This document shows, one piece after another, positions 3,388 to 23,944 of a stretch of 64,000 bases of DNA. The notes under the pieces are model-generated. The model did no database searches, was not told the origin of the DNA, and saw only the letters and a list, made by a program, of their open reading frames with translations. Source of the stretch: Abditibacterium sp. Its GTDB lineage: Bacteria > Armatimonadota > Abditibacteriia > Abditibacteriales > Abditibacteriaceae. Positions within the stretch are counted from its first letter, which is position 1. Each line of letters starts with the position of its first letter. The stretch spans positions 4,320,001-4,384,000 of the forward strand of contig CBDASK010000003.1 in assembly GCA_965199495.1 (NCBI GenBank), read 5' to 3'. Both the position numbers and the translations under genes were made by a program.

Positions 3388-7599
<4,212 letters not shown>

Positions 7600-8387: not shown

Positions 8388-8802
8388 TTTTCCGACGCTC
8401 ACCGATTGGAGCCAGAACGCCTCAGAAGGCATCAAATATTATTCTGGCAAAGCCGTTTACCGCGCCTCGTTCGACGTGGCTGCTCCCAAAGCGCCCGGCA
8501 CTTACAGCTTGTCGCTTGGAAGCGTCAAAAATCTGGCTTCGGTGCGTATCAACGGACGCGATTTGGGCAGCGTGTGGTGCGCGCCGTGGAGCGTGAACAT
8601 TCCTGCGGGCTTGCTCAAGCCAACGGGCAACCAACTGGAAGTCACCGTCGCCAACCTGTGGGTGAACCGGCTCATCGGCGACAACGACAAACCCGCCGAT
8701 CAACGTTTCACTTCCACGACGGTCGGAAAGGTTTTGTCGGAAAAAGATATACAACCGTCGGGCTTGCTCGGCCCGGTGACTTTGCAAAAAACGCCCGCGT
8801 AA
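8388..8802 (+). pseudogene. C-terminal fragment of a GH106/GH2-like glycoside hydrolase
   Basis: PTLTDWSQNASEGIKYYSGKAVY..VWCAPW..VANLWVNRLIGD..PSGLLGPV aligns with the last ~140 aa of 40547..44029; no catalytic domain or signal peptide. Confidence 0.85.
8757..8802 (+). repeat. 46-bp direct repeat, copy 1 (3' end of the GH fragment)
   Basis: GTCGGGCTTGCTCGGCCCGGTGACTTTGCAAAAAACGCCCGCGTAA; repeated at 9452..9497 with one mismatch. Confidence 0.95.
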
Positions 8803-8897
8803 TGGAAACTTGGATATTATCTCACATCGTGTGCATCACGGCGCACCGTAATGGCAGACTTGGGAACTTAAGCAAAGCCCACTCAACAGAAACCCTC

Positions 8898-9302
8898 ATG
8901 AATTTCATATCAGTCAGAATTATCACCAACGACATCAATGGTATGGTCGCCTTCTACGAACGCGTGATGGCGATGAACGCCGACCGACCCGTGCCCACGT
9001 TCGCGGAGTTCCGCACCGGGGTTGCGACCTTGGCTATCGGCAGCATCGAAACCTTGCAACCCTTCGGTGGCACCGATGTCGCCTCGCCTGCCGCGAACAG
9101 CAGCGCGATCCTCGAGTTTCAGGTGGACGACGTTGACGCGGACTATCGGCAACTCGCCGACCTGATCGGCGATGGGCTGGTGCAGGAACCGACGACGATG
9201 CCCTGGGGCAACCGCTCGCTTCTTTTCCGCGACCCGGACGGCAATTTGGTCAACCTGTTCACCCCGGTGACGGCTGAGGCCATTGCTAAATTTGCGAGGT
9301 GA
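8898..9302 (+). CDS. VOC (glyoxalase/bleomycin-resistance) family protein
   Basis: ATG 8898 (MNFISVRIITND..FYERV), LEFQVDDVDADY, EPTTMPWGNRSLLFRDPDGNLVNL. Confidence 0.9.
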   Translation: MNFISVRIITNDINGMVAFYERVMAMNADRPVPTFAEFRTGVATLAIGSIETLQPFGGTDVASPAANSSAILEFQVDDVDADYRQLADLIGDGLVQEPTTMPWGNRSLLFRDPDGNLVNLFTPVTAEAIAKFAR

Positions 9303-9317
9303 CGCCAAGAACTTATG

Positions 9318-9377
9318 TCTTAACAGCGGTCTCGCAGGGGCATGGCTTGCCATGCCCCTGCGAGACCGCTGTTAAGA
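9318..9377. repeat. perfect 29-bp-arm palindrome (REP-like)
   Basis: TCTTAACAGCGGTCTCGCAGGGGCATGGC-TT-GCCATGCCCCTGCGAGACCGCTGTTAAGA. Confidence 0.9.
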
Positions 9378-9539: not shown

Positions 9540-9553
9540 TCGCTCACAATACA
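9540..9553 (+). repeat. polar 14-mer TCGCTCACAATACA, copy 1
   Basis: Exact match, intergenic. Confidence 0.9.
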
Positions 9554-9645
9554 TAGATTTTCTGTTGTTTACGTCTTCTCGAACCCAACTTAATGTCATG
9601 TTTCAAAGCGCGATTTTCCCAAATACGGTTAAATATAACTAAGCG

Positions 9646-10665
9646 ATGTCCGTTTCTTCTTCCCCGATAATTCCGCCATTCGACGCGATTCGCGCGGCGA
9701 TTGAGCGCAACCAAACTTTCTATATCACGACTCACGTCGGCCCCGATGGCGATGCGATTGGCCCGGCGCTGGCGCTCAAAACTGCGCTCGAAAATATCGG
9801 CAAAACCGTGACCTACGTGTCGCGCGATGGCGTGCCGCAGTCGAGCCAATTCGTGGCGCGCGCCGATCAAGTTTCGTTGTCGGTGCCCGAAGGCGCGCGT
9901 TTCGATTGCGCATTTGTGCTTGATTGCGATGGCACGCCCGCGCGCGTGGCTTCGGCTTACGAACCGATTAGCGGCGCCAAAGAGCGCGTGATGATCGATC
10001 ACCATCGCACGTCGAAGCCGATATTTGAGACGAATTGGATTGACCCGTCGCAGGCAGCCACGGCGATGATGGTTTATCAGTTGTTGCGCCATTTCGAGTG
10101 GCCGATTGACGCGGGCATGGCGCAGGGATTATTGATGGGTTTGTCGTGCGATACCGGCCATTTTCGTTTTGATAATACCTCCGCCGAAGTTTTGGCGGCG
10201 GCGGCCTATTTGGTCGAGCGCGGCGCCGATCCGGCGCAAATCGCCTTTAAGTTGTTCGATGAGCGCTCGTTTATTTCGACGCAGTTGCTGGGAATCGCGC
10301 TTTCTAAAATGCAGTCGGCCAGCGCGGGCCAATTGGTGTGGACGGATTTAACTTACCAAGATTTTTTGAGCGTGGGCGCGACCGATGAAAGCGTTGAGAA
10401 TGTGGTGAATTTCCTGCGTTATTGCAAGGGCGCGCGCTTCGCGATTATTTTTCGCGAGCGCCGCGATGAAAATGGCGTGACGGCCAGCATGAGCGTGCGC
10501 AGCGTGCCGGAACTGCGCGCCGATCTGTTCGCTAACGAATTCGGCGGTGGCGGTCACGCCGTGGCGGCGGGCTTTCGGATTAAGGGCAATTTTGAGCGCA
10601 ACGTCGAGGAAGTTTTGGAGCGCGCGCAGGAATGGCTCGAAGAGGAACATGAGCCGGTCTCCTAA
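9646..10665 (+). CDS. nrnA: DHH-family bifunctional oligoribonuclease/PAP phosphatase
   Basis: HVGPDGDAIG, IDHH, DTGHF, GGGGHAVAAG motifs; canonical nrnA-truB-ribF order. Confidence 0.92.
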   Translation: MSVSSSPIIPPFDAIRAAIERNQTFYITTHVGPDGDAIGPALALKTALENIGKTVTYVSRDGVPQSSQFVARADQVSLSVPEGARFDCAFVLDCDGTPARVASAYEPISGAKERVMIDHHRTSKPIFETNWIDPSQAATAMMVYQLLRHFEWPIDAGMAQGLLMGLSCDTGHFRFDNTSAEVLAAAAYLVERGADPAQIAFKLFDERSFISTQLLGIALSKMQSASAGQLVWTDLTYQDFLSVGATDESVENVVNFLRYCKGARFAIIFRERRDENGVTASMSVRSVPELRADLFANEFGGGGHAVAAGFRIKGNFERNVEEVLERAQEWLEEEHEPVS

Positions 10666-10668
10666 AAT

Positions 10669-11547
10669 ATGTTGTATCACGGAGTTCTCAATTTATTAAA
10701 ACCGCCCGGCATGACCAGCCACGACGCCGTGGCTCATGTGCGGCGCGTGCTGAAAACCAAGCGAGTAGGGCACACTGGCACGCTCGATCCAGCGGCGGCG
10801 GGCGTGTTGCCGATTTGCGTTGGTTTGGCGACGCGCTTGGTTGAGGTGCTGCAAGAAGGCACCAAAGAGTATTTGGCTGAAGCGACTTTTGGTTATGAAA
10901 CAGACACGCTCGATGCTGTTGGCGAAACGATTCGCGAATGCGATGCGAAAGATTTAACTATTGAACAATTGGAACGCGCGTGCGAAAAATTTCGTGGCGA
11001 AATACAGCAGCAACCGCCGTTGCATTCGGCAATAAAAATCGGCGGACAAAAGCTGTATGACATCGCGCGCGCGGGCGGCGACATCGAAATTCCCACGCGT
11101 TCGGTCACGATTTCGGCGCTCGAAATCACGCGCTTTTTCGCGGGCGAGCGGCCCCGCGCGTTTTTGCGCATCGAATGTTCAGGCGGCACTTACATTCGTT
11201 CGCTGGTGCGCGACATCGGGCGCGAATTGAACAACGCGGCGACGATGACTTTTTTGACGCGGACGCGCGTGGGCGAATTTGAACTTAGCGAAACTGTGAC
11301 TCCGCAAGAATTCGAGAGTCAGCCGAATTTGATGCCATTGCCCAAAATGCTGGTGCAACTTTACGGAGCCGCTCATGTTGACGATGAACAAACGACGGCT
11401 TTGTGGCAAGGCAAACAAATTCGCGGTGATTTCGGCGAAAATGCCATTGGATTATGGAGTAATAGAGAACAAAATATCTTTGCTCTGGCGTCATCGGATA
11501 ATGCGGGGAATTGGAAGCCAATCAAGGTTTTCGATTTGCGAGTTTGA
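10669..11547 (+). CDS. truB: tRNA pseudouridine(55) synthase
   Basis: KPPGMTSHD, VGHTGTLDPAAAGVL, CSGGTYIRSL. Confidence 0.97.
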   Translation: MLYHGVLNLLKPPGMTSHDAVAHVRRVLKTKRVGHTGTLDPAAAGVLPICVGLATRLVEVLQEGTKEYLAEATFGYETDTLDAVGETIRECDAKDLTIEQLERACEKFRGEIQQQPPLHSAIKIGGQKLYDIARAGGDIEIPTRSVTISALEITRFFAGERPRAFLRIECSGGTYIRSLVRDIGRELNNAATMTFLTRTRVGEFELSETVTPQEFESQPNLMPLPKMLVQLYGAAHVDDEQTTALWQGKQIRGDFGENAIGLWSNREQNIFALASSDNAGNWKPIKVFDLRV

Positions 11548-11568
11548 GCGGCGAAAGTTCCGTATTCA

Positions 11569-12495
11569 TTGAAAATGCAAGTTCACCGCGTTCTTCCCAC
11601 TCACAAAATTCTCGATAAATGTGCGCTCACCATTGGCACGTTCGATGGCGTTCATCGCGGGCATCAAGCATTAATTGGTCGTCTCAAAGAAGAAGCGGAT
11701 GCGCGCGGTTTACAAACGGTGGCTTTGACTTTTGATGATATGCCGATTTGTCTGTTGCGTCCCGAAGTCTGTCCGCTGCTGTTGACTTTGGCCGAGGAAA
11801 AAATCGCGGCCTTTGCCCAAACTCCGCTCGACCATTTGTTTATCGTGCCGTTCACGCGCGAAATCGCCGGGCAGGGCGCCCGCGAGTGGATGCAAAGTTG
11901 GGTTGATAACATCGGATTAAAATTATTCGTTGGTGGCCCCGATTTCGCTTTGGGCCGCAACCGCGAGGGCACTATTGATCAACTGGCTCTGTTAGGCAAA
12001 GAGCTGGGATTCGAGGCATTATCTCTCGCTGGAAAATTGTTGGAGGGTGATTTCCCCATCAGTTCAACGCGTTGCCGCCAGATCATAGAACGCGGCGAGG
12101 TCGAACGTTCGACGGCGTTTTTGAATCGTCCCTATCGTTTGAGCGGTCACGTTGTCGCTGGCCAACGGTTGGGCCGCACCATCGGGTTTCCCACGATTAA
12201 TATCGAGCCAGACTCTCGCAAATGTCTGCCGTCTCACGGCGTTTATGCCGTGCGCGTTTCATGGAATAGCCAAACTTTCCCCGCCGCTCTTAATATCGGG
12301 ATGCGACCCACAGTCAATGGGTTGAACCGTCAAATCGAGTTCCATGTTCTCCATCAAATCATTGATATTGCCCCCACGCAGGTCGAAATCGAGTTCGTCG
12401 CGCGCATGCGAGACGAACATAAATTTCCCGATTTGAACGCACTCAAGACGCAGTTGAAATTAGACGTGGAGCAAGCCCAAGAAATCCTTCGTTGA
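11569..12495 (+). CDS. ribF: riboflavin kinase/FAD synthetase
   Basis: IGTFDGVHRGHQ, ISSTRCR, GRTIGFPTIN, NIGMRPT. Confidence 0.96.
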   Translation: MKMQVHRVLPTHKILDKCALTIGTFDGVHRGHQALIGRLKEEADARGLQTVALTFDDMPICLLRPEVCPLLLTLAEEKIAAFAQTPLDHLFIVPFTREIAGQGAREWMQSWVDNIGLKLFVGGPDFALGRNREGTIDQLALLGKELGFEALSLAGKLLEGDFPISSTRCRQIIERGEVERSTAFLNRPYRLSGHVVAGQRLGRTIGFPTINIEPDSRKCLPSHGVYAVRVSWNSQTFPAALNIGMRPTVNGLNRQIEFHVLHQIIDIAPTQVEIEFVARMRDEHKFPDLNALKTQLKLDVEQAQEILR

Positions 12496-12536
12496 AGCAA
12501 TCCGAAGCAGCCATCTCACGCATATTTTCACTTCAT

Positions 12537-12550
12537 TCGCTCACAATACA
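12537..12550 (+). repeat. polar 14-mer TCGCTCACAATACA, copy 2
   Basis: Exact match, in the gap between convergent ribF and glycerate kinase. Confidence 0.9.
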
Positions 12551-12600
12551 AATGGAAAAGTGTGCGGTAGCTTTTGCGGTATCTTTTATAGAAGCGTCCG

Positions 12601-13728
12601 CTATTTCATCTTCGTCAGAGCTTTTTCCACACAATCTGCAAGTAATACTTCAGCATTTGTAATGCAATACTCCCTTGTCTTTGAGCCGTCGTTAAGCGCG
12701 AATGCTGACTTTATTCCAAGGATTTTCAGTGTCGCAACATCTAGCTCGACTTGACCGGCGAAACCGATAACTGGAATGGCCTGTTGTCGCGCCGCATTGC
12801 AAACGCCGACAATAGATTTTCCGCTGAGGGTTTGCGAGTCAATTGAACCTTCTCCCGTTAAAATTAGGTCAGCCTTTCGTATTTTATCCGTGAAATTCGC
12901 ATACTTCAACACGAAATTAATGCCCGACTGAAATTTTACGTGCGGACAAAAGGCCATCAACCCGAATCCAATGCCTCCCGCTGCTCCCGCGCCCGCGACG
13001 TGGCTGTGATTTGTGCCGGTCATCTCTGCCACGACTTTGGATAAGTTTATTAACCCTTCATCCAGCACAATAATTTCGTCTGGTGTCGCCCCTTTTTGGG
13101 CGGCGTAAACCCAGGCCGCTCCGTCTGGGCCGTAAAGAGGATTCGTGACATCGCATAATATCGTGAATTTGGTTTTGCTCAAGCGCGCGTCGAAAAATTG
13201 GAGATCAAGGGTTGCCAATTGTTTCAATGAGCCACCGCCGGGTGGTAGAACCCGTGATTGTTCGTCGCGTGCGAATAATCCCAGCACGCTCAGCGCTCCG
13301 ATTCCGCCGTCGGTGGTAGCGCTGCCACCGACGGCCAGCACGATTTCGCGACATCCCGCGTTGAGCGCAGCTTTAATTAGCTGTCCTGTGCCAAATGATG
13401 AAGCTGCTAAAGCGTTGCGATGAGCAGGGGTAACTAAGCCAAGCCCAGAAGCTGCGGCCATCTCGATAATGGCGTGTCCATCGTCGGTCGAAATACCCCA
13501 ACGGGCTTCGACCATTTTGCCCGCAGGATTTTTGACGCGCTCCGTTTTGAGCAGTACATTGCCATGAGTTGATAGCGCTTCAAGAGTTCCTTCGCCGCCG
13601 TCAGCCAAGGGCACGCTAAGAATTTCCGCATCGGGAAAGACACGGCGTGCGCCCGATTCCATAGCGTGGGCGGCTTGCCGGGCCGTCATTGAGCCTTTGA
13701 AACTATCGGGCGCCACCACGATTTTCAT
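12601..13728 (-). CDS. glxK: glycerate kinase (class I)
   Basis: MKIVVAPDSFKGS, PLADGGEGT, GGSATTDGG, GAGAAGG, TGEGSIDSQT; ATG overlaps the upstream stop (ATGA). Confidence 0.93.
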   Translation of the reverse strand: MKIVVAPDSFKGSMTARQAAHAMESGARRVFPDAEILSVPLADGGEGTLEALSTHGNVLLKTERVKNPAGKMVEARWGISTDDGHAIIEMAAASGLGLVTPAHRNALAASSFGTGQLIKAALNAGCREIVLAVGGSATTDGGIGALSVLGLFARDEQSRVLPPGGGSLKQLATLDLQFFDARLSKTKFTILCDVTNPLYGPDGAAWVYAAQKGATPDEIIVLDEGLINLSKVVAEMTGTNHSHVAGAGAAGGIGFGLMAFCPHVKFQSGINFVLKYANFTDKIRKADLILTGEGSIDSQTLSGKSIVGVCNAARQQAIPVIGFAGQVELDVATLKILGIKSAFALNDGSKTREYCITNAEVLLADCVEKALTKMK

Positions 13729-14873
13729 AATTTTTGCGCGTTGTCTATTTCCAAACCCATCTCCGAGGCCCATTGGCGATAGGCATAAGGCGAGATTTCG
13801 CTGGGCTTGATCTCGGAACGACCGCCCCAGAAAACATTGGTGTAGAGCAGGGGAATTCCCACCTTTTCCAAGTGTTCATCAATGGCGGCTTTGTGGGCTA
13901 ACACCAAATCTTTGTCGGTTCCATGAGCCACGCCCATGATATTGACGCCCTTGAAATCGGGGCCGCCCTCGCGCCAGTAAGCATGAGTCATAATATGAAA
14001 ACGCCCCACTTCCTTGCCCGCCTCGATTTCGCGACCGATGGGGACTTTCCAGTGAAAGAGCGCGTTGAATTTGGTGACGCGCTCGCCCGAATCCAGTTTT
14101 TTGGTGTGTTCCAAAAACGTCGAAAAGCGACCGATAACGCGGCGCTGGTTGAGTTGGCGCGCGATTTCGACGAATTCATCCAGGGGCAAGCCCGCTTCGT
14201 CGGCCCGCGTTTGCCAGAGATTGGCGCGGATTTCGTCGGGTTCGAGTTCACGTTTGAGGGCTTCCAAAACGCGCCATTCCAAGGGAGAAAGTTCGGCAAT
14301 TGCTGTGTCCATCACGCGCGTGGGTTCGTCCGACTTGGCGCCGGGTTCGAGCAGACGCCGCCGGACGTGCCCAACACCTAAGGCGAAAAGCCGGTTGGCG
14401 GGCATCAATTTGTAGGCGGTGGCTCCGGTTTGATCCATCAAAAATTCGCAGTGGCGCTCCATGCTATAAGGACGCGGAATTTTTAGTGTCGTCCACAAAC
14501 GATAACGCGCTCCGGCAATGGCCGAATCGGTCGTGCGAATGACGACGTGGCCGCTAAAGGGATCGCGCTCAAACATCCAGTTGAAGGCGTCGTTGAGTTT
14601 CTCTTCGGGCACCTGCCACGCGACCAGAGAACCCGGCGCGAGGTTGGTCGCCATCAAAGTCTGGCGCACGCGGCGGATGGTGCCCGCTTCGAGCATGGCC
14701 CGAATCCGCTCCAAAACGAGGGATTCCGGTAAATTGGCGGCGCGGGCGATTTCGCCAAAGGGATCGGGCGAGAATCCTTGAACCTTGTCTTCCGACACGC
14801 TCAAAATCTGAGCGTTAATCGGATCGGTCGTTGAGGTGGGAAGGGAAGAAAGGGTTTGTGACATATTGAGCAT
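13725..14873 (-). CDS. fused Lrp/AsnC-like protein of siroheme decarboxylase (AhbAB/NirDL) type
   Basis: Two tandem HTH + ferredoxin-like repeats (PFGEIA..GTIRR..LVAWQVP..HVVIR; ..VIGRF..LFHWKVP..HAYWR). Confidence 0.65.
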   Translation of the reverse strand: MLNMSQTLSSLPTSTTDPINAQILSVSEDKVQGFSPDPFGEIARAANLPESLVLERIRAMLEAGTIRRVRQTLMATNLAPGSLVAWQVPEEKLNDAFNWMFERDPFSGHVVIRTTDSAIAGARYRLWTTLKIPRPYSMERHCEFLMDQTGATAYKLMPANRLFALGVGHVRRRLLEPGAKSDEPTRVMDTAIAELSPLEWRVLEALKRELEPDEIRANLWQTRADEAGLPLDEFVEIARQLNQRRVIGRFSTFLEHTKKLDSGERVTKFNALFHWKVPIGREIEAGKEVGRFHIMTHAYWREGGPDFKGVNIMGVAHGTDKDLVLAHKAAIDEHLEKVGIPLLYTNVFWGGRSEIKPSEISPYAYRQWASEMGLEIDNAQKL

Positions 14874-14890
14874 TGCACCTCTATTGCGGT

Positions 14891-16093
14891 TTACGATTGT
14901 AAGAGTTCCTCGACTGCCGCGACCATCGCGCGCGCGCCCAGAAAAAGCGCGCTTTCATCGATATTAAAGCGCGGGTGATGATGGGGCCACACGGCGCCGC
15001 TGGCCTCGGCGCGACCGCCCACGAAAAAATAACAGCCGGGAATTTGTTGGAGCACCAGCGACATATCTTCAGCGCCCATCGTCGGCTCAAAAGGTTGGAC
15101 GTTGCCCGCACCCGCCACGCGCTGGAATACGGGCAACAGGCGTGCTGTGACCTCTTCGTTGTTGACCGTGGCTGGGTAGCCGGGAAAAAATTGCCACTCG
15201 CCCTGCGCGCCAAAAGCCTTTGGCAGCGTTTCCACGATCTGGCGCGCGCGTTCTTGAAGAGTCGTGCGCACCGATTCATGGAAAGAGCGCAGCGTGCCTT
15301 CCATCCGGGCTTCGCCGGGAATAACATTAAAAGCCGTTCCACTTTGGAGGCTTCCGATGGTGATAACTGCCGAGTCAAGCGGTTTGATATTTCGGGCGAC
15401 AATGGTTTGCAGCGCCCCAATGACTTGAGCAGCCACGACGATGGCGTCGGTCGTCTGCTGGGGCATCGCGCCGTGGCCACCTTTGCCGGTAATTTGGATG
15501 CGAAACTCATCGGAGGCCGCCATCACCGGGCCGGGCGCAAGGCCGATAGTGCCCGCCTCGATTTCGCTCCAGACGTGCAGGGCAAGCGCGTAGTCGGGCC
15601 GGGGGTTCTCTAATAATCCCGCGTCAATCATTTTGCCCGCGCCGCCTAAACCTTCCTCGGCGGGCTGAAACATAAATTTCACGGTGCCGTGCAGTTGCTC
15701 GCGTTTTTCTGAAAGTAGTCGGGCGACCGTAAGGCCAATGGCCATGTGGCAATCGTGGCCGCAGGCGTGCATGGCGCCGGAAGTTTTCGATTTCCATTCC
15801 CATTGAGTGTCTTCTTCGATGGGCAGGGCATCCATGTCGGCGCGCACCAGCACGCAGGGGCCACTCTGGGCGCCACGCAATAGACCGATAACGCCGGTTA
15901 CGCCAACATTTTCAGTGACTTCGTAACCTAACTCTCGTAGTCTTTGCGCGATGATGCCCGCGCTGCGAACCTCGTGATAACCCAATTCGGGGTGCGCATG
16001 AAAATCTCGTCTGAGCGCCACGATGTCCTGCTCCCACGGCAAAGAGAGGTCGGGAATTCCAGCGATATTCAATAATTCAGGGGCAAATGACAT
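14891..16093 (-). CDS. M20D amidohydrolase
   Basis: RRDFHAHPELG, RADMDALPI, MHACGHD, FQPAEEG, GGHGAMP, AEDM, HHHPRF. Confidence 0.93.
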   Translation of the reverse strand: MSFAPELLNIAGIPDLSLPWEQDIVALRRDFHAHPELGYHEVRSAGIIAQRLRELGYEVTENVGVTGVIGLLRGAQSGPCVLVRADMDALPIEEDTQWEWKSKTSGAMHACGHDCHMAIGLTVARLLSEKREQLHGTVKFMFQPAEEGLGGAGKMIDAGLLENPRPDYALALHVWSEIEAGTIGLAPGPVMAASDEFRIQITGKGGHGAMPQQTTDAIVVAAQVIGALQTIVARNIKPLDSAVITIGSLQSGTAFNVIPGEARMEGTLRSFHESVRTTLQERARQIVETLPKAFGAQGEWQFFPGYPATVNNEEVTARLLPVFQRVAGAGNVQPFEPTMGAEDMSLVLQQIPGCYFFVGGRAEASGAVWPHHHPRFNIDESALFLGARAMVAAVEELLQS

Positions 16094-16164
16094 GGGTTTT
16101 AGTTTAATTCAAAGTCACTGCCACTAAGACATCGGAATCAACGATTCAATAATAATCTGCTTAG

Positions 16165-16178
16165 TCGCTCACAATACA
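16165..16178 (+). repeat. polar 14-mer TCGCTCACAATACA, copy 3
   Basis: Exact match, intergenic, downstream of the recombinase. Confidence 0.9.
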
Positions 16179-16308
16179 AGTCCTTATATGTGATTAAAGT
16201 TTGATCTGAGACGTGAATCCTTAAAATATTCTATCAAAGTAAAATGATGGGGTATGATATGAGATGAATAGAGTAGATTGGCTGTTTTGGCTGTTGAGGA
16301 ATACGAAA

Positions 16309-17343
16309 TCACACCTCGATATCGATGAAGTTGGCCGGATTATTGGCGACCCGCGCCACCGCTTTAACGTAGAGTTCCGTTGATTCTATGTCGACATGGC
16401 CCATCGCGTCCTTGAGATGCTCGACTTTGGCACCGCCAGAAACCGAGAGAGTTCCAAACGTGTGGCGCAGGGCATGACAAGAAACTCCCACTCTTTTCAA
16501 GGAGGCTTCATTAAGGTAATAGTCAACGATTTCGTTGAGTGAACGCCGTGATATTCTTTCGCCGCGCGAGCGGTTGGAAAGTGAAATAAAACAGGCACCC
16601 TCGGCAGGAAAACCGGCTTTATGCTTGGAGACCAGGTAATCTCTGACGACGTTATAGGTATCGGGACGCAGGTATATCTGCCGCATGCGGTTCGCTTTGC
16701 CTCGCACTTCAACGGAAACCAAATCGTCCTGAATGACCACGGACTTTTCATCCATTCTTTCCACTTCGATTCTCCTCAGACCATGAATGGCCATCAGGGC
16801 GATAATCGCGCGGTCACGTTTGCCAATTAAGGTATCAACGGGAACAGCGTCCATCAAGCGCGAGAGGGCGCCCGCCGTCAAGGACTTGATCTTCTCTTCG
16901 CCCGGCGTCTGATCTTTGCCGCCGCGCACACCTACCGCCGGGTTATCCTCGCGCAATCCCGCCTCGACGGCGGAATCATAAAACCTTCTGACAATTGACA
17001 ATTTGTGCGAACGCGTATTGATACGCAAGCCCTGCTGCTTCATCTCCTCGCGATACATCTCGATGTGGATGCGCCGGGCTTGCGCCGGGTCTATGTTATG
17101 ACGGTTGCACCATTGCACCCAGAAATCAATTTCGCGGTAGTAAGCCCGAATCGTATCATCGGTGGCGTCGCCCTGCGCGATGTGAATTTGCACGAACCGT
17201 GAGAACGCGGTAAAAATATCGTCGGTCTGCTCATCATTGCCAACGACATTCGCCGTGGCTGCATCAGAGGCACGACTGGTTTTGCGCACGGGAAATTCCC
17301 TCTCGAAAGGATCGGAAAATTCGTTGGACTCTTGTTTGGGCAT
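16309..17343 (-). CDS. tyrosine recombinase, XerC/XerD-like
   Basis: SAM-like N-domain (TIRAYYREI..LSIVRRFY..DNPA) and full catalytic set: GLRRIE, GKANR, HALRH, MGH, LY. Confidence 0.93.
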   Translation of the reverse strand: MPKQESNEFSDPFEREFPVRKTSRASDAATANVVGNDEQTDDIFTAFSRFVQIHIAQGDATDDTIRAYYREIDFWVQWCNRHNIDPAQARRIHIEMYREEMKQQGLRINTRSHKLSIVRRFYDSAVEAGLREDNPAVGVRGGKDQTPGEEKIKSLTAGALSRLMDAVPVDTLIGKRDRAIIALMAIHGLRRIEVERMDEKSVVIQDDLVSVEVRGKANRMRQIYLRPDTYNVVRDYLVSKHKAGFPAEGACFISLSNRSRGERISRRSLNEIVDYYLNEASLKRVGVSCHALRHTFGTLSVSGGAKVEHLKDAMGHVDIESTELYVKAVARVANNPANFIDIEV

Positions 17344-17362
17344 AACTTAAATTATACTCGAT
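17335..17362. other. putative dif-like recombination site overlapping the recombinase start codon
   Basis: TTTGGGCATAA-CTTAAA-TTATACTCGAT: 11-6-11 layout; 15/22 arm positions identical to E. coli dif (GGTGCGCATAA-TGTATA-TTATGTTAAAT). Confidence 0.55.
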
Positions 17363-17609
17363 ACTTTCTTCCCCAATTATGGGGATAATCGGGCTTGAAT
17401 TTGAAGAACCCACAAACCAACTCAAACCAACTACGAAATTCTCAAGAAATGCTCGCTTTTGAGAAGATATAAACTAACTCGTTTTTGACATGAAAAGCTG
17501 AATGTCCAACTTTACACAATTCCCATTTTGACAGGTTGAAACTTTTGGACGTTTAAAGTTATCGGTAAAAGGAAATTGAAGTCAACTTTTTGTATTAAGC
17601 TATATTAAG

Positions 17610-18440
17610 TTGATGTCTGATTCTTTAGCGATTTCCCTGTCCCGCCAAACCTCATTTTCGTGTGGGTTGCGGTTGTGGCAGAGTTTATGGGGCAATCACA
17701 AGAACGTTGAGGTTTATGGAAAACGGTCAAGGTCTCATGGCGCTAATTTCCAGTTAAGCATCGCTTTGCGTGGCCCCGTCTCGCCCGACGACGGCATGAT
17801 CGTTAATCTGGTTGATGTTAAACCTTATTTGAATCGGCTCATTCTTCCGCTTGACCAATGCTTCCTCAACGACGACGTGGCTGAGTTTGGTTGTTGTAGT
17901 CCAACCCCCGAAAATCTCGCGCGCTACCTGTGGGATCGGATGCCCGACCACATCGGAGATGGCTCGCTTTACCGCTTGCAGTTAAAGCAACTCAACCACA
18001 CCACTGTCGAAATTCTTCCCAGCTCCATGAAGGTCTCTCGCTCCTACGAATTTGCCGCCGCGCACCGGCTGTTTACGCCCACTCTATCCTCGGAGGAAAA
18101 CTGGGCGCGCTTTGATAAATGTTCTAATCCCGCAGGCCACGGCCACAACTTTCAGTTGTCTGTTTGGGTCGAGGGCGATCCCGACCCTCAAAGTGGATTT
18201 ATTATCAACCCGCAATTGCTCGATAACATCGTCGATCAGGAAGTCTATGAAAGATTCGATCACCGACACTTAAACGAGGACTGCCCGGAATTCTTCGGCG
18301 ATGGTTTAGTTCCGACATCGGAAAATCTGGCTTTGGTTATATTCAAGTTGATGCAAAGCCGACTCTCTCAAGAAGGATACCGGCTCTCGAAAATTGGCTT
18401 ACAGGAAACGCAGAAGAATTATTTTGAGGTAGAGGCTTAA
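17610..18440 (+). CDS. tandem-domain 6-pyruvoyl-tetrahydropterin synthase (PTPS/QueD family)
   Basis: Two T-fold repeats; the second has FAAAHRL, CSNPAGHGHNF, FDHRHLN, PTSENLA, LQETQKN. Confidence 0.88.
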   Translation: MMSDSLAISLSRQTSFSCGLRLWQSLWGNHKNVEVYGKRSRSHGANFQLSIALRGPVSPDDGMIVNLVDVKPYLNRLILPLDQCFLNDDVAEFGCCSPTPENLARYLWDRMPDHIGDGSLYRLQLKQLNHTTVEILPSSMKVSRSYEFAAAHRLFTPTLSSEENWARFDKCSNPAGHGHNFQLSVWVEGDPDPQSGFIINPQLLDNIVDQEVYERFDHRHLNEDCPEFFGDGLVPTSENLALVIFKLMQSRLSQEGYRLSKIGLQETQKNYFEVEA

Positions 18441-18446
18441 ACCGCG

Positions 18447-19397
18447 ATGACACCGATTGACAACAGACAACTCAGCCTCGATTTCGATTATGACCGCGAT
18501 TTGATCGCCGACGAAGCCTATATCAACGAGTTGCCCGACCTGCAAAACGGAGCCAACGTTCAGGGCGCCTTGGTCAAGTTAGAACGCGTCGGCATTCATA
18601 ATTTTCGGCTCCCCATCAAATACCGCCAACGCGATAGCAGCGACCTACTGGAACTGGAAACATCGGTGACCGGCACAGTTTCGCTCGATTCCTGCACCAA
18701 GGGCATTAACATGAGCCGCATCATTCGCACGTTTTACGAACACCGCGAACGAGATTTTACCATTGATACATTGGCTCGCATTCTCCGCGATTACAAGCAC
18801 GGCCTTCAATCGCTGGAAGCCCAGATCATGGTGAAGTTCTCCTACCCGATCCTGCAAAATTCGCTGCGCTCGAATTTACAGGGATTTCAATATTATGATG
18901 TGGTTTTGGAAATGGAGGTGGACGCCAGCGATCAACTAAAAAAGACTTTGCACTTTGATTTCGTCTACTCTTCGGCTTGCCCCTGCTCATTCGAGTTGAG
19001 CGAACACGCCCGCAGCCACCGCAATAAAGCCACGGTGCCGCACTCACAGCGCAGCGTCGCCAGAGTCTCGGTGAAATTCGACACCATGGTCTGGATCGAA
19101 GATTTGCAGGGAATCTGCGTTCGGGCCTTGCAGACCGAAACTCAGGTTATGGTCAAACGCGAAGACGAACAGGCTTTTGCAGAACTCAACGGCTCCTACC
19201 TCAAGTTTGTCGAAGACGCCGCTCGTCTGCTTTACAGGGAATTGGATAATGACGACCGCATCCTCGATTTTAAAATTGTCTGCTCCCACTTGGAATCTCT
19301 TCACTCGCACGATGCCATCGCCGTCGTGGCCAAGGGAATTCCGGGAGGATGGACACCGGAAATCACCTACAACGAACTGAGGACGCTGATAAGGTAA
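18447..19397 (+). CDS. folE2: GTP cyclohydrolase I type IB
   Basis: LPDLQ, KGINMSRI, SSACPCS, PHSQRS, VKREDEQAFAE, FVEDAAR, ESLHSHDA. Confidence 0.95.
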   Translation: MTPIDNRQLSLDFDYDRDLIADEAYINELPDLQNGANVQGALVKLERVGIHNFRLPIKYRQRDSSDLLELETSVTGTVSLDSCTKGINMSRIIRTFYEHRERDFTIDTLARILRDYKHGLQSLEAQIMVKFSYPILQNSLRSNLQGFQYYDVVLEMEVDASDQLKKTLHFDFVYSSACPCSFELSEHARSHRNKATVPHSQRSVARVSVKFDTMVWIEDLQGICVRALQTETQVMVKREDEQAFAELNGSYLKFVEDAARLLYRELDNDDRILDFKIVCSHLESLHSHDAIAVVAKGIPGGWTPEITYNELRTLIR

Positions 19398-19433
19398 AGA
19401 AATTGTTGATTATAAGAGTTAAGCAACCCGCGC

Positions 19434-19537
19434 ACAGTTTCCCTTTACAGTTTCCCTTTACAGTTTCCCTTTACAGTTTCCCTTTACAGTTTCCCTTTAC
19501 AGTTTCCCTTTACAGTTTCCCTTTACAGTTTCCCTTT
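19434..19537 (+). repeat. perfect tandem repeat (ACAGTTTCCCTTT) x8
   Basis: Units start at 19434, 19447, 19460, 19473, 19486, 19499, 19512 and 19525. Confidence 0.97.
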
Positions 19538-19583
19538 ATTGATAACGCAATTCTCAAATGATGTGAATTACATACAACGCAAT

Positions 19584-19597
19584 TGTATTGTGAGCGA
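19584..19597 (-). repeat. polar 14-mer, copy 4 (reverse orientation)
   Basis: TGTATTGTGAGCGA on +, between convergent folE2 and gpx. Confidence 0.9.
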
Positions 19598-19611
19598 CTG
19601 GATTAATTATT

Positions 19612-19661
19612 AATGAAAGAGGGCACGTTTGGCTTTGTAGTCAAACGTGCCCTCTTTCATT
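19612..19661. terminator. bidirectional hairpin between folE2 and gpx
   Basis: 20-bp arms AATGAAAGAGGGCACGTTTG / CAAACGTGCCCTCTTTCATT. Confidence 0.7.
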
Positions 19662-19675
19662 CTTCGTCAAAAACC

Positions 19676-20296
19676 CTATTTTTGTGCGAGTTGGGTCTTG
19701 ATGGCGGTCTCTAATTCTTCGCTTTGCGGAGTGACTTTGGACTTGAAACGGTCTACTAAAGATCCATCGCGAGAAACCAAAAACTTCTCGAAATTCCAGT
19801 CTATCGGGCCGGTTTTCTTGGAGTTTGCCTCCTCGGTTAAATAGTGGAAGAAGGGAGAAATATCCTCTCCCTTAACGCTTGATTTGGCGAATAGATCGAA
19901 AGTCACGCCATAATTTTTCTGGCAGAACGCGCCGATTTCTTCGGCACTGCCCGGTTCCTGTCCCCCGAAATTGTTGGCGGGAAAACCCAAAACTTCCAAT
20001 CCCTGCGCTTTGTATGCTTCGGATAAAGCCTGCAAACCCGCGTATTGAGGCGTGTAACCGCACTTGGAGGCGGTATTCACAATGAGCAAAACTTTACCCC
20101 GGTATTTGGCCATATCCACGGGTTTGCCATCAAGGGTTTCGAGTTTGTAGTCGTATATCGTCATAGAAGCAGGTTCATCGGTGGGAGCCGTTTTTGTAGC
20201 AGAATTAGCAGCGGAGTCAGTTGCCTCAATGGAACGAGCGCTCTGGCAACCCGCAAGCAAAACTAAACCGCACAACAACAAAGGGAATTTTTTCAT
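19676..20296 (-). CDS. glutathione peroxidase-family lipoprotein
   Basis: Lipobox LLAGC; NTASKCGYTPQY, LGFPANNFGGQEPG, IDWNFEKFL. Confidence 0.93.
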   Translation of the reverse strand: MKKFPLLLCGLVLLAGCQSARSIEATDSAANSATKTAPTDEPASMTIYDYKLETLDGKPVDMAKYRGKVLLIVNTASKCGYTPQYAGLQALSEAYKAQGLEVLGFPANNFGGQEPGSAEEIGAFCQKNYGVTFDLFAKSSVKGEDISPFFHYLTEEANSKKTGPIDWNFEKFLVSRDGSLVDRFKSKVTPQSEELETAIKTQLAQK

Positions 20297-20302
20297 GGGA
20301 GT

Positions 20303-20950
20303 TCAATCGGGGAGATGGTCTTCGCGCCACAAATCGTAAGAGATGCGCGCGATTTCAAAAGTTTGGCGCGTCTCAGTGTAGCCACCGGCACCACCCATGC
20401 GCCCAATTAAATCCAATTTCTCGCTATCAACATGTAGTTTCTCCCGGTCAACGAACTGATCTTCGCACCACAACCCCAGAACTTCACCGACAACGAGTTG
20501 ATTTCGCCCGATTAATAGCGTGGTATGTTCGCGGCACTCCAAGCTAATCGGCGCCTGACAAATGCGCGGCACGCTAATTCGGCGCGACGAACACGTTTTC
20601 AAACCAGCGATTTCCACCTCGGAATACGCCGGGGGAAAATTGATGGCGCAAACGTTCATCGCCTCCGCCATCGAGTGGCTCACCAAATTCACGACAAATT
20701 CGCTCCGAGAACGAATATTGCGCAGGGTATCTTTCTCGCCGTCTCCGCCTCCGCCACTAATTCCAACCACGACTAACGCGGGATCACTGCCGATAACATT
20801 AAAAAAAGAGTACGGAGCCGCATTGATAATCCCCTGTTCGCCCTGCGATGTAATCAGGGCAATCGGACGTGGCACGACGGAAGCCGCCAACAACTTATAA
20901 CCATCGCGAGTAGAAATTTCAGAAAAATCAAAGAACATTATTTTTATCAT
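20303..20950 (-). CDS. flavin reductase-like (DIM6/NTAB) protein
   Basis: VVPRPIALITS, NAAPYSFFN, KDTLRNI, IGRMGG. Confidence 0.9.
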   Translation of the reverse strand: MIKIMFFDFSEISTRDGYKLLAASVVPRPIALITSQGEQGIINAAPYSFFNVIGSDPALVVVGISGGGGDGEKDTLRNIRSRSEFVVNLVSHSMAEAMNVCAINFPPAYSEVEIAGLKTCSSRRISVPRICQAPISLECREHTTLLIGRNQLVVGEVLGLWCEDQFVDREKLHVDSEKLDLIGRMGGAGGYTETRQTFEIARISYDLWREDHLPD

Positions 20951-21129
20951 CCAAATTAATCTGGATGTGGCAGACCAACGATCAATCCAACAGCCAATTT
21001 TGCGCCGCCGTAGAAAACAAAAACGGAATTCACTTCCAAAATCGCAACAGCGAATTCGTCAAAAAAAGCTAATTAAAATCCTATTAAAATCCTATGGTAT
21101 TGATCATTGGCTAAATCACCCGCAATTTA

Positions 21130-21143
21130 TGTATTGTGAGCGA
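21130..21143 (-). repeat. polar 14-mer, copy 5 (reverse orientation)
   Basis: TGTATTGTGAGCGA on +, intergenic. Confidence 0.9.
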
Positions 21144-21170
21144 TTAGAATGTAAAACAACAATGCTTGAT

Positions 21171-22055
21171 TTATGAGATAGCGGGGAGAAGGGAGAGGCG
21201 ATTAAATTTCGAGTTGCCGGCGGTGAGTAGATTGCGGCGCGCGCGGAAAAACTCCAGACGTTCGGCCCAGTCGCCATTAGTCGAGTGGAAGGGCGCATTG
21301 GAGATTTTTTCGACGAACTCGGTGATTTTGCGCGCAGACAGGGGCTTGCCCTGCCAGGGAAAACGCAGTTCAGGGCACACCAGACTGGCGACATCGGGAG
21401 CCATAGCGCTGGTTTCGAGAGGTAGGTTGAACGCATAAAGTACCTGACCCGGAAAAATAGTGCGCAGAGGCGGCGCGATCAAATGGCGGCTGTCGGCGCT
21501 CACAATTAACGATTTGGAATAGGTATAACCATCGCCGTCGGCAATTTCAAAATCAACGGCTAACCGCACAGCCACGGCGCGCCCCACAATGATAGAGTCG
21601 GGGTCATCAAGCAAAAATATCTTACGCGGCATCAACTTGAGCAGACGTAACCAGTCGCACAGCCCATCAACTCGCAAACGTAACTCCTCGTAACTCAAGG
21701 GGATTGGCTCGCCCAAAACAGGCTCAGCCACAAGAGTTGGCGAACTTAACAAGGCCGCACCATAACATACAAAATGAGCGCGCGTATACTCATCTAACGC
21801 CGGGCCAGCGGGGTTCGCGCGTGTGCTTTCCAGACGCTCCAAGCGAGAATTCAATTGCTCCAACGCCGCGTAAGCCTCGCCAGAGTTCGGCACTTCGATG
21901 ATACCCTGCCCCAACGCCCGCGCCATTGCCTCGCTCCAGGCGGCTAATCCCTCGGTCTGTTCACACAACAAAGCAGCCCAGCGCATTTGAAACGCGGGCC
22001 AGAACGCACGAACGGAAGAAGAAGAGAACACTTGAAAAAGTTTAAAAGCCACCAC
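21171..22055 (-). CDS. hypothetical protein
   Basis: 294-aa ORF filling the gap between neighbours; no motif recognised; start uncertain. Confidence 0.65.
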   Translation of the reverse strand: MVAFKLFQVFSSSSVRAFWPAFQMRWAALLCEQTEGLAAWSEAMARALGQGIIEVPNSGEAYAALEQLNSRLERLESTRANPAGPALDEYTRAHFVCYGAALLSSPTLVAEPVLGEPIPLSYEELRLRVDGLCDWLRLLKLMPRKIFLLDDPDSIIVGRAVAVRLAVDFEIADGDGYTYSKSLIVSADSRHLIAPPLRTIFPGQVLYAFNLPLETSAMAPDVASLVCPELRFPWQGKPLSARKITEFVEKISNAPFHSTNGDWAERLEFFRARRNLLTAGNSKFNRLSLLPAIS

Positions 22056-22231
22056 TCTGCGCCTAAATGCGACATTCCATTATCACCTAAAGAAATAATT
22101 GGGCCACACGGCATAGTCTGGCAAATTTTGGCGAACCCCTGAAACTGATATAGGGCACATTCCATAACTTTAAGGCTTATTTTTCAAAACGACCGTTGAA
22201 CAACGGCGATATCAGCACTTAATTTTCATTT

Positions 22232-23770
22232 TTACAGGTTACGAGCGATTAACACGGCGACATCATCGCGGTGAACGCTTTTGGCAACGGCGCTGCGGGC
22301 GAGGGTAAAATGACGCGCCATAAACGGTTCGTCGCCAAGAGCCACGCCCGCCAGAGCGACCAACTCCTGCGCGGCCTCCGCCGAAGTTGGCGATGTCGCC
22401 GCTTCGGCATAACTCTCGCGCAACCCCAGCGCCAAGGCGTTGACCTGTGCCTCGCCATCGAACTCGCCACCATAGGAAAGCGCGTCGGGCAGACCATCGG
22501 TGAACATCAAGAGGGCATCGCCCTTTTTCCATGCCACCGATTTCTGGGTGATTTTGAGTTCAGGGAACAGTCCCAGCGCCGGAGCCGTCGCTGCCAACGC
22601 AAAGGGCGCCTCCTCACTGGCGCCCGCCGCTCGCATCAATAGCGGCGCCAAATGCCCCGCGTTGCACCACGTCAACAATTGCAGCTTGCTATCAACGACG
22701 ACCAGACAAATCGCGATATAAAGTTCGGGCGCCAAGTCGGGCAAGAGCGTCGTTTGTAGGCGCGCCATGAGTTCGGCAGGTTGCGAGTGCAACGGCGCGA
22801 GGGCGCGCAGCGAATATTTGAGCAGGGGCACGCGCGCCTGAGCGCGGATGCTTTTGCCCGAAACATCGGCGATGCACAAAAGCGTCGCGCCATCGGCAAG
22901 GGGAATCGCGTCGAGATAATCGCCGCCGCCCACGCTACGCGCGCTCTGCAAAGCCGCGCCAATATCGAGGTCATGCGGGACGCCACCCTTTTCGGGACGA
23001 CTGAGCAAAAGAGGTTGCAGTTCGCCCGACAAATCTATTTCCTGTTGGTAGTTGGCGATCAACAGTTCGCGCTCCAAACTGCGCTCGCGCTCGCGATCCT
23101 GCGCCTCGGCGATATACCCGGCCAAGGCGCCTATGACGAAGAACAAAACCGAGTTCAGCGCCATCGGATAGTTTGGTTGCAGCAACACTCCCGCGCCGGT
23201 GGCTGCCGGTCGCACCCACAACATCAGCCAAAGAAAGTTGCAGACCGCCGCCATCAAAACGCCACCCAAAACGCGATACCACATCGCCGCGACGACAACG
23301 ACAACGTAATAAAACGGCAGCAACTCGAAGCGCCCGGAAATGTGAATCCACGCCGAAATCAGCGTGGCATCCATCGTCACGATGAGCGCGCGCCGCAACC
23401 GAAAGCGCGTCGGATAAATGCTGGCGACGATAGTGAAGATGTTATAAACGCCCGCGACCGCCATCAAAATCAGCGCGCTACTGCCGTAGGCCTCGCGAAT
23501 CGGGTAGACGAAAGGCACGAGAGCCAACGCCATCAACAGCAGCATGCGTAGCGACGCCAACAGCAGCTCGGCATCGCGAATCGCGTTATCGCCCGCCTCG
23601 CCTTCGACAGACCCATCACCACGCTTCTCGGCCTTGTCACGCCCGGTCAGTTCGGCGAATTCGGACGCGACAGACGCCGCCAACTGACGCGATGGGGCCA
23701 ATGTATAGCGTCCGTTTTGTGAATCCGGCGCCTCCGACGCAGGGGAATGTTCGCGAACCTTAAAAGTCAA
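22232..23770 (-). CDS. membrane-anchored PP2C (RsbU/SpoIIE) phosphatase
   Basis: Several TM helices, then VGGGDYLD, IADVSGK, CNAGH, FTDGL, DDVAVL; start uncertain. Confidence 0.88.
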   Translation of the reverse strand: MTFKVREHSPASEAPDSQNGRYTLAPSRQLAASVASEFAELTGRDKAEKRGDGSVEGEAGDNAIRDAELLLASLRMLLLMALALVPFVYPIREAYGSSALILMAVAGVYNIFTIVASIYPTRFRLRRALIVTMDATLISAWIHISGRFELLPFYYVVVVVAAMWYRVLGGVLMAAVCNFLWLMLWVRPAATGAGVLLQPNYPMALNSVLFFVIGALAGYIAEAQDRERERSLERELLIANYQQEIDLSGELQPLLLSRPEKGGVPHDLDIGAALQSARSVGGGDYLDAIPLADGATLLCIADVSGKSIRAQARVPLLKYSLRALAPLHSQPAELMARLQTTLLPDLAPELYIAICLVVVDSKLQLLTWCNAGHLAPLLMRAAGASEEAPFALAATAPALGLFPELKITQKSVAWKKGDALLMFTDGLPDALSYGGEFDGEAQVNALALGLRESYAEAATSPTSAEAAQELVALAGVALGDEPFMARHFTLARSAVAKSVHRDDVAVLIARNL

Positions 23771-23930
23771 GATACCTATATTTTACCGGGAGAGCGCCGC
23801 TCTTGGCGCGCAATATGTGATACAGGCTGTTACAAAGTGCAAAAATGGCATTGGCTCGCGCGTAGTGGCGCCAAATCCAATAGAGGAAACCAAGCTATCA
23901 CCGAAAAGCAACTTCAACTTCATCTTCTTT

Positions 23931-23944
23931 TGCATTGTGAGCGA
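23931..23944 (-). repeat. polar 14-mer, copy 6 (reverse orientation, 1 mismatch)
   Basis: TGCATTGTGAGCGATTAG on +. Confidence 0.85.

Follow-up and report, generated by a model that had tools for sequence, protein, structure and literature searches.

We analyzed a 64,000-nucleotide stretch of the chromosome of an Abditibacterium species (hereafter the window; C3:4320001-4384000 in an assembly of three contigs), in which six copies of a short asymmetric repeat are arranged around the gene for an Xer-like tyrosine recombinase, intW, next to rpoB. The repeats delimit five operon-sized segments (S1–S5) of 1.5–3.6 kb, whose genes we mapped with Pfam and NCBIfam profiles (Table 1). With the exception of a glyoxalase-family gene lying outside the leftmost repeat, the genes of the locus are single-copy in this genome (G000).

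Polar repeats and gene content of the locus

The repeat, TCGCTCACAATACA, occurs in a scan of the window as five exact copies, three on the forward strand (sites A–C) and two on the reverse strand (sites D and E), with a sixth reverse-strand copy (site F) that has one mismatch (..ATGCA), a GCA variant also present in relatives. An earlier note on this DNA had described six polar, intergenic copies reading +++ and then −−−, and no further full copy in the window. Both observations were upheld: the chance expectation for the 14-mer in the window is 0.34 copies, six were reached in none of 100 shuffles, all six copies lie between open reading frames, and no other match was found in the window at up to two mismatches. 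The note was also right that the copies at 12537 and 19584 are located between convergent 3' ends, namely those of ribF and glxK and those of folE2 and the glutathione peroxidase (GPx) gene. The dif-like site that it placed in the recombinase interval was not recovered, as no inverted repeat with 10-nt arms, 4–8 nt spacers and up to one mismatch is present between 16179 and 19583.

Our scan of the whole 4.8 Mb assembly at up to one mismatch returned eight matches, against none for a reversed control: the six array copies, one copy on contig C1 and one at C3:272388, which lies in GC-rich DNA and is probably a chance match. Relaxed searches fell to the control level, with 20 versus 16 matches at two mismatches and 266 versus 247 at three; thus, only the near-exact 14-mer is special. 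Outside the locus, the 4.8 Mb hold two near-exact 14-mers and four exact copies of its 11-mer core, and once the array and the C1 copy are set aside the background of the exact core is three per 4.7 Mb. The 14-mer is nearly restricted to one 14 kb stretch of the 4.8 Mb genome, where it is polar, and it is conserved in relatives. With so few copies outside the locus, it does not behave like the FtsK-orienting polar sequences (KOPS) or architecture-imparting sequences, which are frequent genome-wide motifs with a strand skew that switches at dif.

We then built a profile from 27 sites, comprising 25 from five chromosomal arrays and two found upstream of parA on plasmid-type DNA. The 11-mer core, TCGCTCACAAT, is exact in 25 of them and carries a T5>C replacement in the other two. 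About 1 bit per position is found in the four bases 5' of the core (YTWR), whereas 3' of it two bases (AC) are partly conserved, AAAAG often comes next, and nothing is conserved further out. The flanks carry little information and cannot be aligned between species, whereas the core is kept. Neither this profile nor an inverted-arm scan of the locus detected a second arm at the canonical spacing. The window's sites do not have the two inverted 11-nt arms and 6-nt spacer of a dif-type site, and no palindromic site of that type was found in the window's array locus; what they have is the build of a shufflon site, with one conserved arm and core and a variable other arm. An Rfam scan gave only sub-threshold matches to miRNA models, on hairpins at 9323–9372 and 19603–19674 (a terminator); hence, the sites are unexplained by any RNA family.

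Table 1. Coordinates of the sites, segments and neighboring genes in the window. G004 and G011 are genomes of relatives, L132 and L133 are arrays from metagenomes, and P2 denotes a second accessory recombinase clade.
Feature	Position	Strand	Remarks
rpoB	3388..7599	-	fixed left neighbor of the array; sister P2 arrays begin at the equal place
Site A	9540..9553	+	gap between glyoxalase gene and nrnA; outermost left; 1.9 kb from rpoB start; conserved arm and start of spacer
S1	9554..12536	+	nrnA (DHH/DHHA1), truB, ribF; in L132 and L133 inverted, on the opposite side of the center
Site B	12537..12550	+	gap between convergent 3' ends of ribF and glxK; orthologous site in G011 and G004
S2	12551..16164	-	glxK, fused AhbA/B-like siroheme decarboxylase, M20 peptidase
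Site C	16165..16178	+	gap between M20 peptidase start and recombinase stop; left edge of central invertible segment
S3 (central)	16179..19583	.	intW (-), double-PTPS/QueD-like (+), FolE2 (+); inverted in G004 and L132
intW	16309..17343	-	accessory Xer-like tyrosine recombinase, 344 aa; proposed enzyme for the sites
Site D	19584..19597	-	gap between folE2 3' end and GPx 3' end; right edge of central segment
S4	19598..21129	-	glutathione peroxidase, flavin reductase; in L132 inverted, on the other side
Site E	21130..21143	-	gap between unk294 3' end and flavin reductase start
S5	21144..23930	-	unk294, SpoIIE/PP2C phosphatase; none seen in 21 kb of L132
Site F	23931..23944	-	..ATGCA variant; gap between SpoIIE-type phosphatase start and unk308; outermost right
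Right flank of array			unk308, then shikimate-dehydrogenase-like gene

The surroundings of the sites have several further features. A bidirectional terminator hairpin at 19614-19659 flanks site D, on whose other side, between it and the folE2 stop, a 13-bp unit (GGGAAACTGTAAA, reverse strand) is repeated head-to-tail in eight copies (19434-19540); in G004 a different tandem repeat, with a 16-bp unit, adjoins site E of that genome. The glyoxalase-family gene (8406-9302) is duplicated about 116 kb away, at C3:4445228-4446121, with 91% identity between the copies, and is missing at the equivalent position in G004 and G011. NrnA (9646-10665) is 94–96% identical to its G004 and G011 orthologues, while its neighbors TruB and RibF reach only 71–89%. 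GC content is 0.48 over 16000-21000 (recombinase, PTPS–folE2 and GPx) versus 0.55–0.58 in the flanks. At 61909-62880, among glycoside-hydrolase genes, an open reading frame for an rve-type (DDE) transposase/integrase is probably part of an insertion sequence.

The recombinase and rearrangements with breakpoints at the repeats

IntW scores 77.8 bits against the Pfam Phage_integrase profile (PF00589; cut-off 27.1), which places it in the tyrosine recombinase superfamily. Its scores against the equivalog models for XerD (TIGR02225, 129 bits versus a cut-off of 330) and XerC (TIGR02224, 125 versus 335) fall far below threshold; thus, it is Xer-like without being an orthologue of either. The closest solved structure is that of E. 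coli XerD (E=1.8e-20), with which the Arg, Lys, His-x-x-Arg, His and Tyr positions of intW align, so that all six catalytic positions are intact; the alignment reaches residue 328 of 344 and leaves 16 residues. Against the integron-integrase model it scores just 38 bits (cut-off 265), and the locus is not organized as an integron: the gene is flanked on either side by sites that are oppositely oriented, and the cargo is made up of operons with promoter regions of their own.

The motif and the enzyme co-occur. Of 41 genomes, G000, G004 and G011 alone contain clusters of the motif, and of 201 genomes of the phylum the same three alone have recombinase orthologues of at least 75% identity. In a 25-row tree, the intW proteins of these genomes form a long-stemmed clade of their own, separate from a core paralogue (P1) and from the second accessory clade, P2. 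P1 is present once in each of the ten genus genomes of the tree and in two genomes of a neighboring genus; in G000 it is located at 3.985 Mb, where neither a comparable repeat cluster nor a conserved adjoining palindrome was found.

Comparison of gene order showed that the sites coincide with rearrangement breakpoints. A metagenome scan added two arrays to those of the three genomes, L132 and L133, with recombinases 78% and 71% identical to intW, respectively. G011 displays the mirror image of the window order (S1 S2 S3 S4 S5), in which each orthologous gap contains a site and a further site adjoins rpoB, while G004 departs from the window order in S3 alone, which is inverted with its ends exactly at the two innermost sites. 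L132 reads site(>), flavin reductase, GPx, site(>), glxK, ahbAB, M20, site(>), folE2, PTPS, recombinase, site(<), ribF, truB, nrnA, site(<), unk308; this is S4' S2 S3' S1' (primes mark inversion), with the exact core at all five junctions. L133, with recombinase, site(<), ribF, truB, has the adjacency seen in L132. Thus, three arrangements exist among the five arrays and all breakpoints fall at motif copies, with G004 one site-bounded inversion away from the window and L132 three. Several segments have been inverted singly or in groups, as in a shufflon, on evidence that is between species and not within a clone.

We modeled inversion between any + site and any − site for five segments. Of the 3,840 signed orders, such inversions can reach just 240 (the script's figure of 19,200 includes the number of + sites as a further variable). 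In all of these the recombinase segment remains in the middle, and no other segment changes which of its ends is the inner one. All five arrays obey these rules, S3 being central in each. In G009, G006 and G008, PTPS>folE2>M20>ahbAB form a co-directional block with neither recombinase nor site, and in the remaining nine of the 12 regions examined this block is partial or interrupted. Given the co-directional block in genomes lacking intW, the S3 orientation of G004 looks ancestral on gene order, and the window would represent the flipped state.

These breakpoints also bear on the possibility that the 14-mers are operators of a local transcription factor co-regulating the array operons. Sites A, E and F do lie 92–180 nt 5' of operons and are co-oriented with them, and site A overlaps a promoter-like match (TTGACG-17-CACAAT). 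However, it is the sole one of the six to do so in a promoter scan that gave 16 promoter-like matches against 10.5 expected, sites B and D are placed between convergent 3' ends, and site C points away from the operon it precedes. An 11-mer invariant across species would be atypical of operators, and neither the breakpoints nor the link to the recombinase would be accounted for. We consider regulation of this kind most improbable.

A sister system and copies outside the chromosome

The P2 clade has a comparable system of its own. In the P2 loci of G012, G010, G002 and G003, an 11-6-11-type palindrome directly follows the recombinase gene on its 3' side. In G012 and G002 it reads ACTTAACACAA-TGATCA-TTGTGTTAAGT and has, with its two arms, the build of a dif-type site. 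The P2 palindromes span 28–40 bp, that of G002 being perfectly symmetric over the full 40 bp; a different palindrome, likewise perfect over 40 bp and with spacer CAATTG, is found in G010, and that of G003 is imperfect. The P2 polar sites, GACTTGA-ACTTAACACAA-YGAAAAG, each contain one palindrome arm and all point toward the palindrome; G012 has three + copies, the palindrome and three − copies within 36 kb of its 7.5 Mb genome. The P2 arrays begin beside rpoB exactly as the window's array does, with different cargo: MTHFR, acyltransferase, major facilitator superfamily (MFS) transporter and lipoamide-dehydrogenase-like genes. In G009, the recombinase-bearing block lies the other way round with respect to rpoB, and its rpoB-side junction holds a degenerate polar site.

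The two motifs have CACAA in common, and aligning them on it divides the window's sites into an arm, nTCGCTCACAA, and a spacer, T[A/G]CAnn, the commonest spacer being TACAAA. The P2 motif is at background level in G000 and the window's motif is unclustered in the P2 genomes, from which it follows that enzyme and site diverged together. Upstream of rpoB in 13 further genomes (ten regions of 18.6–20 kb, that of G006 extended to 60 kb, and three of less than 3 kb), we found no recombinase and no comparable repeat cluster, except for a weak match of 26% identity in G014. The corresponding region of G006 has no informative neighbors; a three-copy repeat of this genome ending in CACAA was considered as a site array and rejected, since it is coding sequence of paralogous genes.

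Several other elements of these loci deserve mention. The 40-bp perfect palindromes (L105:10479-10518 in G002 and L104:7380-7419 in G010) differ between the two genomes in the six outermost bases on each side and yet are symmetric within each, which suggests that the two halves are homogenized in concert. A 'T' element of the P2 loci (ACCTTACACAATT...) was rejected as a polar site: with a close version 5' of PTPS at window position 17509, it looks like a promoter-associated element of folate-related operons. An element of about 21 nt (ACCTTACACAATTTACATTTG in P2 genomes, at L103:5573, L104:11690, L105:11922 and L106:8311; a close variant at window positions 17509-17530) is conserved just 5' of a TTGAC-type −35 box. 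It precedes folate-related operons, namely PTPS–folE2 in the window and MTHFR in four of the five P2 genomes, and may be a shared operator or UP element. On C3 of G000, a hairpin-forming repeat family of about 125 bp (approximately 31 blastn copies, e.g., 620759-620884, 964356-964480 and 4153625-4153750; DNA fold −55.8 kcal/mol) has ends reading TCGCTCAGAAT outward, a sequence that differs from the recombinase arm at one base; in one copy the end is the arm itself.

Single copies of the window's motif are also found outside the chromosome. Contig C1 (24,667 bp, with a 17-base terminal overlap) codes for RepA, a TraG/TraD-like coupling protein, ArdC, a serine resolvase, an Imm8 immunity protein and ParA, and is a probable circular plasmid; it carries the exact core about 95 bp 5' of parA. 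In G011, contig C41, which is unrelated to C1 at the DNA level, likewise has a motif copy 5' of a ParA gene. A lone site for a host recombinase on a plasmid, as in cer/psi-type sites, resembles a multimer-resolution or integration site, and by this analogy the C1 and C41 copies look like sites of one or the other kind.

Such copies could also be read as traces of a capture platform comparable to integrons or to integrative mobile elements exploiting Xer (IMEX), in which circular DNA, such as plasmids or excised chromosomal circles, would have integrated serially at a symmetric dif-like site and left the chromosomal sites behind as hybrid att-type scars, with inversions coming later. Every integration event would regenerate the full site and add a one-armed site directed at it. 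Capture of this kind automatically yields the arrangement +..+ palindrome −..− seen in P2, and the cargo of the two systems is wholly different at one position, operons of the window's array being located elsewhere in other genomes. Yet the cargo consists of single-copy housekeeping operons instead of mobile-element genes, the window's array retains no full site, and the segment order is the same in three species, inversions aside. The origin of an array by serial capture would make the polarity automatic, but it misfits the P2 palindromes, as the P2 polar sites share flanks (GACTTGA upstream and GAAAAG downstream) that are absent from the present palindrome. We regard this as decidedly unlikely. 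Inversion between a palindrome and a pseudo-site was also considered as the sole origin of the convergence and rejected, because on derivation it yields two half-sites in the same direction.

Position near the replication terminus

With the 4.72 Mb contig taken as a circle and dnaA at 2.03 Mb, the point opposite dnaA is at 4.39 Mb, and the array, at 4.33–4.34 Mb, is 51 kb from it. In a two-break step model, the T-A skew breaks at 4.340 Mb (interval 4.28–4.51), inside the locus at 5-kb resolution, and the keto skew at 3.945 Mb (interval 3.925–4.340); both signals are weak. The locus is therefore within a broad, skew-defined terminus zone of 3.93–4.5 Mb, of which the array takes up just 14 kb. 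For the P2 arrays, the distance to the dnaA antipode is 52 kb in G009 and 565 kb in G012. These positions are not independent of each other because all the arrays adjoin rpoB, and in G020 rpoB is about 190 kb from the antipode, and the 20 kb upstream of it contain neither a recombinase nor a comparable repeat cluster. The terminus-proximal location is real, but it does not fix the terminus at the point where the polarity switches. Searching the whole genome for 11-6-11 palindromes at up to two mismatches returned 1,978 matches, a result that does not discriminate, and no canonical dif was identified in G000.

This location raises the question of whether the sites serve the terminus itself. In one version, the one-armed sites would be non-recombining binding sites for an Xer-like protein that organize the terminus, by unloading SMC or marking fork convergence, with inversions as a by-product; XerD binding sites of Bacillus subtilis have reportedly been assigned a comparable function. 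The distances from the antipode and the T-A skew break agree with this, as do the P2 arrays, which are centered on a dif-like palindrome and whose sites carry exactly one of its arms; moreover, XerD of B. subtilis has been described as a sequence-specific SMC unloader at the terminus (PMC12322038). However, the three positions are non-independent, rpoB is terminus-proximal in G020 even without the system, the skew is weak and its keto/GC break is at 3.945 Mb, and the absence of the system from part of the genus (G006 and others) would be odd for a core chromosome function. The single copies on plasmid-type DNA and the breakpoints exactly at sites are a better fit to recombination, and we judge the binding-only version unlikely. 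The broader proposal, that the convergent one-armed arrays constitute a lineage-specific terminus system with the recombinase as polar marker (SMC unloader, dimer-resolution guide or fork barrier) and inversions as a side effect, seems to us rather unlikely. If a terminus-organizing role were true, it would amount to a novel way for a deep-branching phylum to define its terminus.

The convergent orientation and the location would also be expected of a replication fork trap, in which the sites bind a polar terminator protein in the manner of Ter with Tus or RTP. Our searches found no match to Tus (PF05472) or RTP (PF02334) in this 95%-complete genome, whereas control genomes were matched. Two conserved proteins without an assigned family are encoded within or next to the array; unk308 resembles quinate/shikimate dehydrogenase-type enzymes, and unk294 gave no match. 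The array is only 14 kb long, the motif tracks a recombinase clade, copies occur on plasmid-type DNA, and breakpoints are at the sites; taken with the searches, this makes a fork trap very improbable. Of the interpretation offered by the earlier note, the polarity, confinement to the locus, conservation and terminus-proximal position stand, and the polar fork-arrest protein is not the best account, there being no Tus or RTP match in this 95%-complete genome and the motif following the recombinase clade. Its alternative, nested inversion sites for the recombinase, is the one that we favor, since the gene-order breakpoints between relatives are all at motif copies.

A putative operon-scale inversion array

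We propose that the 14-mers are probably asymmetric, one-armed recombination sites of the adjacent intW, used in shuffling the operon segments beside rpoB. An invariant arm with free flanks, one site per junction and three arrangements related by inversion are most simply accounted for by a multi-inversion array; the orientation rule, the co-divergence of enzyme and motif, the intact catalytic residues and the copies beside parA also count toward it. By analogy with the 11-6-11 site of P2, each site would consist of the conserved arm, nTCGCTCACAA, a crossover spacer, T[A/G]CAnn, and then DNA without a second arm. Recombination between a + copy and a − copy would invert all the DNA between them, and over evolutionary time the five segments would be flipped and reordered as a chromosomal, operon-scale shufflon. 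With the conserved arm always on the outer side, every such inversion would keep the sites pointing inward and the recombinase segment central; this rule would explain the inward polarity, as +..+ −..− is unchangeable by + × − inversions. Recombination between sites in the same direction would delete single-copy genes, for example truB and ribF, and its products would be unrecovered or the reaction disfavored by the asymmetry of the sites. The sites, their conservation, their co-occurrence with the enzyme clade and the breakpoints are shown directly; binding and cutting by intW and the position of the crossover are inferred, as would be any present activity or adaptive role.

One potential consequence concerns S3, the flip of which would set M20–ahbAB–glxK downstream either of PTPS–folE2, the ancestral operon order, or of intW. 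The 70-nt gap that separates site C from the M20 start contained no promoter-like match in the promoter scan, and the S2 operon may therefore be read from intW or from PTPS–folE2: the former in the window state, and the latter in G004, L132 and the ancestral state.

Several points weigh against this proposal. Rci is proposed to owe its use of one-armed sites to an additional C-terminal domain (PMC11852207), which intW lacks, and the missing second arm at canonical spacing is unusual for an Xer-type enzyme. The flanks have diverged too far to tell whether the crossover lies within the motif or immediately next to it, and the seven sites of G011 all differ in spacer, which may reflect low activity there. 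The evidence for rearrangement is all between species. In sequencing run X2, which contains this genome, the contigs list no strand-switch joint, so that no within-population inversion was seen, and they read across sites A, B, C, E and F as arranged in the reference; since assembled contigs lose rare variants, no firm statement on flipping follows. A second run, X1, contained only fragments from a relative. Finally, the terminus-proximal position and the P2 palindrome would also suit a binding-only role.

We found no earlier description of such an array in the literature searched. To our knowledge, programmed or recurrent inversion is known for surface proteins, restriction specificity and promoters, and not for the reordering of whole housekeeping operons on a chromosome. 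The shufflon of plasmid R64 is, like the array proposed here, a multiple-inversion system in which asymmetric sites separate several segments: the tyrosine recombinase Rci acts at sfx sites with one conserved arm and core, segments invert singly or in groups, and the asymmetry of sfx has been proposed to restrict Rci to inversions (PMC11852207). However, it is plasmid-borne, its sites lie inside pilV segments that are swapped as alternative 3' ends of one gene to change the C-terminus of one protein, and Rci has its extra C-terminal domain, features that are lacking here; the array is chromosomal, with intergenic sites, whole housekeeping operons as segments, an Xer-like enzyme and sites converging on the recombinase segment. 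In the pdif modules of Acinetobacter, gene modules bounded by Xer-type sites are likewise reshuffled by inversion between inversely oriented sites, with identical spacers favoring exchange (PMC13141974). Unlike the one-armed, convergent, chromosomal sites of the window, with a dedicated accessory recombinase within the array, those are complete 11-6-11 sites, alternating C/D and D/C, carried on plasmids and served by the housekeeping XerC/D; the likeness is thus functional only. By analogy, the closest mechanistic counterpart is the R64 shufflon and the closest among Xer systems the Acinetobacter dif modules, with the array sharing the full set of defining features of neither.

Linkage of a recombinase gene to its site in the terminus region is described for XerS/difSL, XerH/difH and the archaeal XerA/dif (PMC2731167, PMC5357621, PMC2958812). 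P2, whose 28-bp 11-6-11 site follows the gene directly, is a good fit to these single-recombinase modules; they have one dimer-resolution site, whereas here there are at least six extra one-armed sites, the window's array has no full site, the enzyme is absent from part of the genus, and P1 exists beside it as a core paralogue. The vpma/Xer1 system of Mycoplasma similarly places an Xer-like recombinase beside a cluster of short sites and inverts the intervening DNA (PMC2268961). It switches one promoter among surface-lipoprotein genes for antigenic variation, whereas the array consists of self-contained operons with no single switched promoter evident. Clustering at the terminus is shared with the XerD binding sites (XDS) of Bacillus subtilis, Xer-protein sites reportedly used there for something other than dimer resolution; the arrays differ from them in the comparative evidence for recombination and in their length of 14–36 kb.

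If intW uses one-armed sites, inversion at asymmetric sites of the Rci kind would extend to a plain Xer-type enzyme, and the array would represent a compact natural toolkit for multi-segment inversion. The two co-diverged pairs of recombinase and site at one terminus-proximal position offer a testable entry to terminus handling in the Abditibacteriota. The operons reordered in this way include truB–ribF and the folate/pterin and redox genes, and the system may help to explain the turnover of gene order near the terminus in the genus.

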